From an uncultured Acidobacteriota bacterium (GTDB lineage Bacteria; Acidobacteriota; Blastocatellia; RBC074): a stretch of DNA of 64,000 nt. The notes beneath the pieces were generated by a model, which worked only from the letters and a program-made list of their open reading frames with translations, did no database searches and had not been told where the DNA came from. Shown piece after piece: positions 10,650 through 10,987 of the stretch. The DNA is taken from NCBI GenBank assembly GCA_963796275.1, contig CAWCKY010000006.1, positions 1,408,001-1,472,000 on the forward strand, in the 5' to 3' direction. The position numbers and the translations under genes were made by a program. Positions within the stretch are counted from its first letter, which is position 1. Each line of letters opens with the position of its first letter.

Positions 10650-10829
10650 ATGAAAAGACGCAAAGAAGATAACAGCATACGAAGCGAGAAACACGGCAGG
10701 GATAGGATCAGGATGTTCTTCATCAAGATATTCTTTACTCCGGTGCCCATGATGGATCGTTGTTGTTGTTGTCCCTGTTCATGTCTATGCCTTGGGCTGC
10801 AGAGAATAGAGCCTGATTCGAGGGAATGA
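10650..10829 (+). CDS. Unannotated Cys-rich small ORF, candidate attenuator leader peptide (59 aa)
   Basis: AAGGA 7 nt upstream of ATG; MKRRKEDNSIRSEKHGRDRIRMFFIKIFFTPVPMMDRCCCCPCSCLCLGLQRIEPDSRE*; alternative ATGs at 10713, 10749, 10752; below the ORF-track length cutoff. Confidence 0.5.
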   Translation: MKRRKEDNSIRSEKHGRDRIRMFFIKIFFTPVPMMDRCCCCPCSCLCLGLQRIEPDSRE

Positions 10830-10856
10830 AATCTGGATGCCAGCCAGATCATTACT

Positions 10857-10901
10857 GAAACCCGCTATCAGCTCTAAGCGAATAGCGGGTTTCTGATTTT
10901 T
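10857..10901 (+). terminator. Terminator-like hairpin 1
   Basis: GAAACCCGCTAT (10857-10868)/ATAGCGGGTTTC (10882-10893) followed by TGATTTTT. Confidence 0.65.
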
Positions 10902-10955
10902 GGTTGGTTCATACGAATTACTTCCGTAGCTGGTGCTTAGTTGATGGACTCCTTG

Positions 10956-10987
10956 GCGGTGGGTCCCATGAACCCACCGCGTTTTTT
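10956..10987 (+). terminator. Intrinsic terminator hairpin 2
   Basis: GCGGTGGGT/ACCCACCGC 9-bp stem, 7-nt loop, followed by GTTTTTT. Confidence 0.75.

Follow-up and report, generated by a model that had tools for sequence, protein, structure and literature searches.

The classical leader-peptide attenuators are those of trp, his, leu, thr, pheA and ilv in enterobacteria, and it is also from enterobacteria that small RNAs (sRNAs) derived from 3' untranslated regions (3'-UTRs) or embedded in terminators are known, among them GlnZ, CpxQ and the tRNA-spacer RNA 3'ETS-leuZ. To our knowledge, the regulation of sulfur assimilation in Acidobacteria, which are abundant soil bacteria, is largely unknown. 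Here, a 64,000-nt stretch of DNA (referred to as the window) from an uncultured acidobacterium of the class Blastocatellia (lineage RBC074; assembly GCA_963796275.1, contig CAWCKY010000006.1, positions 1,408,001 to 1,472,000, forward strand) was analyzed computationally. The analysis concerns a region behind the last gene of an sbp-cysT-cysW operon, in which a short open reading frame (ORF) rich in Cys codons is followed by a hairpin (hairpin 1), by a second terminator (terminator 2) and by a gene for tRNA-Cys. We read the Cys-rich ORF together with hairpin 1 as a probable transcription attenuator, and terminator 2 as part of a putative, separate sRNA-like element.

Leader ORFs with Cys codons have been described in other bacteria. 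In Rhodobacterales, uORFC-8-2, a predicted upstream ORF (uORF) with Cys codons that precedes cysS and is followed by an intrinsic terminator, was proposed to be a reader of Cys-tRNA(Cys) (PMC8632094, in the sections available). The mycobacterial 'Cys ribulon' works, according to the available sections of its description, through leaderless poly-Cys short ORFs, by which the ribosome-binding site that comes next is unmasked (bioRxiv 10.1101/834739). For the cys operons of Actinobacteria, Cys-codon leader ORFs were predicted in 2005, and the portion of that report at hand states that no terminators were found (PMC1262725). Among the attenuators predicted in Acidobacteria, almost none has an assigned function, as stated in the part of the survey considered here (PMC2965389).

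A conserved Cys-codon leader and terminator behind cysW

We consider it likely, with a probability of roughly 0.7, that positions 10650-10901 constitute a transcription attenuator of the leader-peptide type, in which the ribosome serves to sense Cys-tRNA(Cys). The conservation of the module, its enrichment in Cys codons, the fixed spacing of its parts, the covariation of its terminator, the predicted alternative fold and the gene contexts in which it occurs were all computed; the response of termination and read-through to cysteine, and events at terminator 2, are inferred.

The leader ORF (10650-10829, plus strand) comprises 59 codons, ends in ...MMDRCCCCPCSCLCLGLQRIEPDSRE* with a TGA at 10827-10829 and starts 42 nt past the cysW stop codon; its ATG at 10650 is preceded, 7 nt upstream, by AAGGA, a sequence resembling a Shine-Dalgarno (SD) motif. 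The predicted sensor is a group of seven Cys codons within ten (10761-10790, plus strand), the last of which lies 12 codons ahead of the stop. Downstream of the leader is the candidate attenuator terminator, hairpin 1 (10858-10901, plus strand), with a stem at 10858-10892 (AAACCCGCTAT / ATAGCGGGTTT; -19.4 kcal/mol) and an interrupted U-tract, TTTCTGATTTTT. The fold of 10820-10995, which extends over hairpin 1 and terminator 2, has an energy of -66.5 kcal/mol (z = -4.02 against shuffles).

The module recurs in relatives (genomes, contigs and loci are given by our working labels, beginning with G, C and L, respectively). The cysW gene (9723-10607, plus strand), the last of its operon, has orthologues of 59-77% identity in 16 relatives, and a Cys-rich short ORF is present within 700 nt 3' of cysW in 10 of the 17 orthologue loci of the family. 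Two of the remaining seven loci are cut by a contig edge and five have no Cys-rich ORF in those 700 nt; among the latter, G085 and G063 carry the module on the same contig beyond 700 nt, and G018 carries it upstream of the operon. Common to the ten are the Cys cluster, an ORF-ending block GAG-C/A-CUGAU-YU-GAGGGA-R-UGA/UAA, a variable spacer of ~30 nt containing a small hairpin, the stem AAACCCGCURUCAG / CUGAYAGCGGGUUU and a U-tract. In G001, which of the genomes that have the operon is the closest, ...SLGCCCCPCLCPGVGAWDGGTDLMG* comes after cysW, then the same hairpin stem and then directly the gene of an outer-membrane protein. In two other genomes, G064 and G075, cysW and the leader even overlap, the ATG of the leader sharing bases with the cysW stop codon.

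A covariance model (R1) was built from alignment columns starting 12 nt past the last Cys codon, so that the Cys codons were excluded from it. R1 matches the window at 10802-10904 with 81.3 bits and finds the module in 29 of the 87 genomes of the same acidobacterial family, while a sample of 112 genomes, drawn from nine further families of the class, yielded no match at E <= 1e-4. The family counts, both this one and the 81 of 87 given below for a second model (R2), include the unpublished genome G004, without which they are 28 of 86 and 80 of 86. Although Cys codons played no part in the model, 26 of its 28 best matches have a Cys-rich ORF on their 5' side, the exceptions being G076, cut at the contig start, and G057, a weak match with no ORF. 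At all 26 readable loci this short ORF has a start codon and could be translated, contains 4-11 Cys codons, and ends 8-14 codons (mostly 10-12) after the last of them.

Every member retains the GC-rich stem and, after it, a U-tract, with stem energies between -16.5 and -27.2 kcal/mol. Across 27 distinct sequences, the pairs of hairpin 1 are filled in 89.3% of the cells, as against 24-49% when the partner strand is slid, and compensatory changes affect 9 of the 14 pairs (23 cells), a result matched by none of 500 shuffles. On this comparative sequence evidence, the Cys-rich ORF has been conserved together with hairpin 1 as a unit, and the unit is one member of a predicted family of leader-peptide transcription attenuators.

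The same ORF could instead encode a functional small Cys-rich peptide (for example a metal-binding one), with hairpin 1 acting as the constitutive terminator of sbp-cysTW and the downstream genes having promoters of their own. A start codon with an SD-like AAGGA would suit such a gene, as would the recurrence across relatives of the Cys cluster and of a C-terminal ...E(T/P)DLRE, and as would a terminator that is always favoured at equilibrium (see below). Yet the leaders range from 25 to 172 residues, their N-terminal parts cannot be aligned, and the leader ORF matches no Pfam family. At the end of the ORF, third codon positions that are paired are invariant and unpaired ones vary, while the amino acids themselves change (P/T/A, L/V/A/S, R/W/M); the constraint therefore acts on the RNA, and C-terminal conservation follows the base-pairing, as the R/W/M and P/T/A swaps keep the paired bases. 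Moreover, a fixed spacing between Cys codons, stop and terminator would be of no use to a peptide, and at five loci a tRNA-Cys gene begins 10-22 nt past the end of the R1 match. A peptide gene is, on balance, quite unlikely.

Searches by codon pattern alone were also tried. The pattern CCCCPC gave 35 matches in the 87 genomes versus 13 for a reversed control, mostly in other frames of repeat-rich genes; the cysW context was shared only with G001, and the search gave way to the cysW orthologues and to model R1. A crude scan of the source genome (G000), in which a short frame with three Cys codons in a row had to be accompanied by a terminator, returned 26 noisy hits, missed the window's own attenuator because its U-tract is interrupted, and was not used. 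Outside the reach of model R1, a short ORF ...MSMGCCCCPCVALPGTSRQSP* followed by a clean terminator and a gene start was observed at locus L093 (G050:C54, minus strand, ~1501), which may represent another type of Cys leader.

A candidate antiterminator and the proposed switch

The antiterminator proposed here is formed by the end of the leader and hairpin 1. Its 5' strand (10809-10824, plus strand; GAG.CUGAU..GAGGG) is located within about the last five to six leader codons, and its 3' strand (10861-10874) is the 5' arm and loop of hairpin 1. Three helices can be distinguished, P1 (GGAG/CUCC), P2 (CUGAU/RUCAG) and P3 (GNGGG/CCCGC), which together enclose a small spacer hairpin (10831-10850, plus strand) that is predicted at the same place in relatives, its sequence being variable and unalignable.

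Folding with masked ribosome footprints gave the two states that a switch would need. With a ribosome on the Cys codons of the window, 10809-10824 pairs with 10861-10874, and with a ribosome on the stop codon (10812-10842 masked) this pairing is excluded. When the nascent RNA is folded as far as the terminator loop, the antiterminator has the lowest energy in 24 of 28 members, and it is formed in 8 of 9 members with a stalled ribosome (RNA free from 13 nt past the last Cys codon). In the 27 distinct sequences, its pairs are filled in 85.6% of the cells, compared with 37-52% when slid, and double changes occur in four pairs, one each (including GGAG/CUCC to GGAA/UUCC in G050 and A-U to U-A in G047), a result reached by 8 of 500 shuffles. 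A structure that excludes the terminator, masked at the stop and free at a Cys stall, is thus found in the predictions, with weak covariation.

Several observations weigh against this switch. The covariation of the antiterminator consists of only four double changes, each in a single sequence, so that its support is mainly conserved complementarity. The helix was derived from the same sequences in which it was tested, and their alignment (A5) had been fitted to the terminator; a structure read off the same sequences is therefore support, not proof. In 4 of the 28 members (G001, G084, G057 and G018) the nascent RNA folds without the antiterminator, which also contains a conserved mismatch (A20/G73) and, in two members of genus g8, a further one. 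There is no region 1 as in trp, and the antiterminator is predicted even without any ribosome. The U-tract of hairpin 1 is interrupted, and a simple terminator scan did not list this hairpin. In the window, the attenuator is separated from the tRNA gene by terminator 2 (-19.3 kcal/mol, T6), making the extent of any read-through into the tRNA and outer-membrane protein genes uncertain. Lastly, equilibrium folding of the complete transcript gives the terminator as the structure of lowest energy in every ribosome state; therefore the switch must be kinetic and be decided during transcription.

If attenuation operates as proposed, the leader ORF would be transcribed together with sbp-cysT-cysW and then translated. 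When charged tRNA-Cys is plentiful, the ribosome would reach the stop codon and cover 10809-10824, hairpin 1 would form, and transcription would halt at the U-tract. When Cys-tRNA is scarce, the ribosome would stall on the seven Cys codons, 12-22 codons 5' of the stop, leaving the end of the leader free to capture the 5' arm and loop of hairpin 1 during their emergence; the terminator would then be blocked, and RNA polymerase would continue, first into the sRNA-like element with its own terminator and perhaps on to the tRNA-Cys gene and the gene of the outer-membrane protein. A shortage switch that lets transcription run into tRNA-Cys and an outer-membrane uptake gene is the most likely role of the module.

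Cys-tRNA might also be sensed in the same way with a different output, namely protection or exposure of the RNA to RNase or Rho, at the 3' end of the cysPTW mRNA or in the 5' leader of the pre-tRNA, hairpin 1 being a processing or stability signal. The position of the module at the 3' end of an operon and directly before a tRNA that requires RNase P processing would be consistent with this, and the poly-Cys attenuators of mycobacteria work, as far as the available sections of the source describe them, on translation and not on termination (bioRxiv 10.1101/834739). Such an output is nevertheless very unlikely, given that all members retain the GC-rich stem with its U-tract and that the alternative helix takes away exactly the 5' arm of that stem.

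Genes downstream of the attenuator

All 22 tRNA genes found by ARAGORN at 29 attenuator loci are tRNA-Cys genes located downstream on the same strand; they are spread over 14 loci. In G080, G081, G099, G101 and G076, the tRNA begins 10-22 nt past the end of the R1 match, which itself spans the U-tract. This gap leaves no room for a separate promoter and, therefore, the tRNA would hardly be transcribed except by read-through.

Two layouts were recognized. In layout I, sbp-cysTW is followed by the attenuator, by tRNA-Cys (not always present) and by a gene for a TonB-type outer-membrane protein; in layout II, sat or another gene precedes the attenuator, which is followed by a gene for a DUF1684 protein and two tRNA-Cys genes. 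Genes upstream of the module thus include cysW and sat, and in relatives tRNA-Cys or the outer-membrane protein gene comes directly after it. The window has layout I with the sRNA-like element inserted before the tRNA. Its tRNA-Cys (GCA) gene (11027-11101, plus strand) was identified with ARAGORN and with the Rfam tRNA model (59 bits), and the following gene (11155-14838, plus strand) encodes a TonB-type outer-membrane protein of 1227 amino acids (aa) with the Pfam domains OMP_b-brl_4, CarboxypepD_reg and TonB_dep_Rec_b-barrel, orthologues of which come after the attenuator in 9 cysW loci.

The tRNA-Cys genes show a peculiarity of their own. The anticodon loop of the window's tRNA-Cys is CGGCAAA, with G33 replacing the near-universal U33, and the first tRNA-Cys after the attenuator is without U33 in 9 of 14 loci (the window, L126, L127, L131, L138, L141, L146, L150 and L154), eight having G33, the window included, and one C33. 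In addition, the copy in G081 has the anticodon ACA, and that in G084 looks degenerate. The second tRNA-Cys of tandem pairs has the normal loop CUGCAAA in all eight loci. The variant lacking U33 recurs in five genera and therefore seems to be under maintenance, not in decay. G000 has 47 tRNAs, among which tRNA-Cys(GCA) is the only same-anticodon species present in three copies; the extra copies are at C6:732953-733025 and C7:294625-294699, and one of them lies between sat (sulfate adenylyltransferase) and cysC (adenosine 5'-phosphosulfate kinase) in a sulfate-assimilation cluster, the gene names having been read from the translated flanks.

A conserved sRNA-like element carries terminator 2

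Terminator 2 (10956-10980, plus strand; T6 at 10982-10987) was the only terminator-like site listed by a simple scan of 10400-11300. Comparison with related genomes indicates that it is the 3' end of a separate, conserved sRNA-like element of ~80 nt (10912-10993, plus strand; 85.5 bits with covariance model R2). In a DNA search of 40 relatives, 10912-10987 was matched in many genomes belonging to the family, at 82-94% identity over the full length of ~76 nt and at up to 100% over shorter stretches. The aligned copies share a 36-nt core, GUUACUUCCGUAGCUGGUGCUUAGUUGAUGGACUCC, at which positions are invariant or at least 90% conserved, followed by a short linker, a terminator hairpin of variable sequence with compensatory changes in five pairs, and a U-tract. 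A near-invariant hairpin (10923-10948, plus strand) has a 5-nt loop, GUGCU, and is followed by the linker CUCCUUG. Sequence 5' of the core, including a segment GGTTGGTTCAT discussed below, is unconserved.

Model R2 finds the element in 81 of the 87 family genomes, with scores of ~35-104 bits, versus matches of at most 30 bits outside the family. A second copy is present in the source genome on contig C3. At 17 of 18 loci examined, the element directly follows a BBP2-type porin gene or a gene encoding ~240-295 aa, and in at least 13 of these loci amtB and glnK are found just 5'. It also accompanies the attenuator, occurring within 1.5 kb on the same strand at 12 of 30 attenuator loci, mostly between tRNA genes.

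The original prediction for this DNA held that ribosome position sets a choice between terminator and antiterminator, and this idea agrees with the comparative data. The parts that it named were others, however. It assigned regulation to terminator 2, opened by the segment GGTTGGTTCAT (10902-10912, plus strand), and let a 10-codon mini-ORF (10826-10858, plus strand), coupled to the leader by an ATGA overlap, relay the position of the ribosome. In our analysis the regulated terminator is hairpin 1, terminator 2 belonging to the independent element; the predicted antiterminator is the leader end (10809-10824) paired with the 5' arm and loop of hairpin 1; and the predicted sensor is the run of Cys codons.

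The coordinates and letters on which that prediction was based are all exact. Of the 11 positions of the segment GGTTGGTTCAT, 10 are complementary to ATGAACCCACC (10968-10978) and one is a U/C mismatch; the leader TGA overlaps the ATG at 10826 that opens MKSGCQPDHY*, and this mini-ORF extends to the base of hairpin 1, its stop codon (10856-10858) touching the first base of the hairpin (10858). The duplex of this flank with the 3' arm is also stronger than expected from 200 flank shuffles (-14.1 versus -7.0 kcal/mol; z = -3.07), and in the read-through state GGTTGGTTCAT would be freed and could weaken terminator 2 in the source genome. Despite this, among 19 other copies of the element only that at L044 (z = -3.03) resembles the window, the pairing being missing from the remaining 18 (z from -1.47 to +0.92), and G050, the only other locus with attenuator followed by element, has no segment corresponding to GGTTGGTTCAT. 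The segment would have to compete for a 3' arm that is made last and adjoins its own 5' arm. The named pairing is also the weaker one, the forced GGTTGGTTCAT structure (-23.5 kcal/mol) being 4.6 kcal/mol worse than the fold with terminator 2 (-28.1 kcal/mol); in the full fold, GGUUGG pairs upstream with CCAGCC instead. The mini-ORF is conserved neither in presence nor in length (an overlapping start in 15 of 26 leaders, opening frames of 3 to 523 codons), GAGGGA abuts its ATG with no spacer, and it was judged fortuitous. A switch at terminator 2 served by the mini-ORF is highly improbable, and both the GGTTGGTTCAT pairing and the mini-ORF are, in the genomes compared, peculiar to the source genome.

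Two further points raised with the prediction concerned the nature of the hairpins. They are not copies of a genome-wide repeat of the repetitive extragenic palindrome (REP) type, as hairpin 1 occurs once in the 9.46-Mb genome and the element has two strong copies and one weak match (26.8 bits). The suggested check for a known RNA, an Rfam 15 covariance-model search of 10400-11300 with E up to 10, gave nothing except the tRNA above threshold. When Rfam was applied to the element at 18 loci, with gathering scores, only one tRNA and one Acido-Lenti-1 RNA were found, the latter elsewhere in its locus: at L038 24-71 (G017:C162), an Acido-Lenti-1 RNA (RF01687, 40.8 bits) lies ~90 nt from the copy of the element.

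Other identities of the element were considered and rejected. ARAGORN found no tRNA in the element at the 18 loci, which excluded a tRNA-like reading. The core does not fit the consensus of a sigma-54 promoter, as one base is missing from the spacing between GG and GC, and GA stands where GC would be expected. An ANTAR target, which the amtB-glnK context brought into consideration, consists of two hexaloop hairpins (A1, G4) in an operon leader, the second overlapping the terminator; the element has one hairpin with a 5-nt loop, which does not form part of the terminator stem and is located where the operon ends (3').

In some genomes the element forms head-to-tail arrays of two to four copies with a period of ~90 nt (G101:C317, L168; G089:C75, L169; G048:C870; G049:C257; G091:C26). 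The arrays directly follow the stop codon of the upstream gene, of porin type in L168, and each copy has its own terminator, with AU-rich spacers of ~10-25 nt. Diverged copies (37-49 bits) were observed 150-260 nt 5' of the attenuator at L130, L131 and L143 (G082, G098 and G013, respectively); in G082 and G013 they are located behind sat, and thus the element also closes a sulfur-assimilation gene.

A possible target was noticed in G000 (C3:668291-668312, minus strand; L003, ~1500-1522), where 20 nt are perfectly antisense to nt 11-30 of the element and cover a GGAGG located 8 nt before the ATG of a gene for a secreted BNR/sortilin-like protein. A partial duplicate of this site lies just upstream, and the gene is split over two frames in the assembly. 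The other 86 genomes of the family all lack the exact antisense 20-mer, and antisense sites of shorter length occurred at chance level. These target matches are contiguous seed matches only; duplexfold energies, inflated by long interior loops, were not used.

Gene neighbourhood

The sbp-cysT-cysW operon (7860-10607, plus strand) encodes, according to Pfam, an SBP_bac_11 protein (7860-8891) and two BPD_transp_1 proteins (8810-9748 and 9723-10607). Upstream of it are a gene for an ATPase of the ATP-binding cassette (ABC) type (5938-7149) and, between this gene and the operon, a gene for an Rrf2-family regulator (7324-7779), both recognized with Pfam. The regulator may provide a second, protein-based control of the same operon. 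A simple scan of 10400-11300 for sigma-70-like promoters found none.

Significance and comparison with known systems

The module described here is a concrete, testable candidate cysteine sensor with defined parts, a covariance model and about 28 natural variants. Its link to tRNA-Cys, if real, would be a new feedback loop on tRNA supply, and the element that carries terminator 2 is an RNA motif specific to the family and near-universal in it, which marks the ends of operons for nutrient uptake and has no match in Rfam. A more speculative picture, offered tentatively and with considerable doubt, is that the attenuator, besides switching on uptake genes, drives a dedicated tRNA-Cys paralogue lacking U33, a tRNA that would be autoregulated by stalling on its own codons and that maybe has a non-decoding role, and that it also drives a family-wide small RNA, copies of which close both nitrogen (amtB-glnK-porin) and sulfur (sat, Cys-attenuator) operons. 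If this were true, limitation of nitrogen and of sulfur would be signalled to shared targets by a single RNA.

A full-text literature search retrieved no paper on a Cys attenuator in Acidobacteria or on an amino-acid attenuator directly before its cognate tRNA gene. Cys-codon attenuators are known elsewhere; a family-level variant with this unusual cargo, tRNA-Cys and an sRNA-like element, was not found in print and appears to be new.

The sRNA-like element resembles the enterobacterial 3'-UTR-derived sRNAs in that its conserved sequence is located just before, and shares, the terminator of an operon (amtB-glnK-porin), and in that it also occurs in tRNA spacers. It differs from them in having no sequence relation to them and in its head-to-tail arrays, and the RNA is in this case putative.

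With the attenuators of the trp type, the module shares a short ORF in which codons for the amino acid to be sensed are clustered, a terminator of the intrinsic type and a helix that removes the 5' arm of the terminator, the position of the ribosome being, in the proposed mechanism, what decides. Unlike them, it has no sequence relation to them and no Rfam match, and here it is cysteine that would be sensed. It has three RNA regions only, region 1 being absent, so that read-through would be favoured if the leader were not translated. Furthermore, it is intra-operonic, behind cysW in the window and in eight or nine relatives, instead of at the 5' end, and has a tRNA gene downstream.

The mycobacterial and actinobacterial leaders, in so far as the available sections describe them, have in common with the present loci poly-Cys short ORFs before sulfur or cysteine genes, a stall as the presumed sensor and several loci per genome. 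In contrast to the leaderless ORFs of mycobacteria, the ORF of the window starts 42 nt past cysW, has an SD-like sequence and is followed by a covarying intrinsic terminator. Nor is the unmasking of a ribosome-binding site what the conserved parts suggest, the conserved structure being a terminator and the next gene being, in five loci, a tRNA gene, which has no ribosome-binding site.

There is also a likeness to uORFC-8-2, as both combine a predicted Cys-codon uORF and a terminator proposed to control a gene in the supply chain of Cys-tRNA (PMC8632094, in the sections available). As described there, uORFC-8-2 is found in Alphaproteobacteria, only before cysS, with two tandem Cys codons inside the first stem. 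The acidobacterial leaders, compared with it by description, carry 4-11 Cys codons located 5' of the structure, precede other genes and belong to another phylum.

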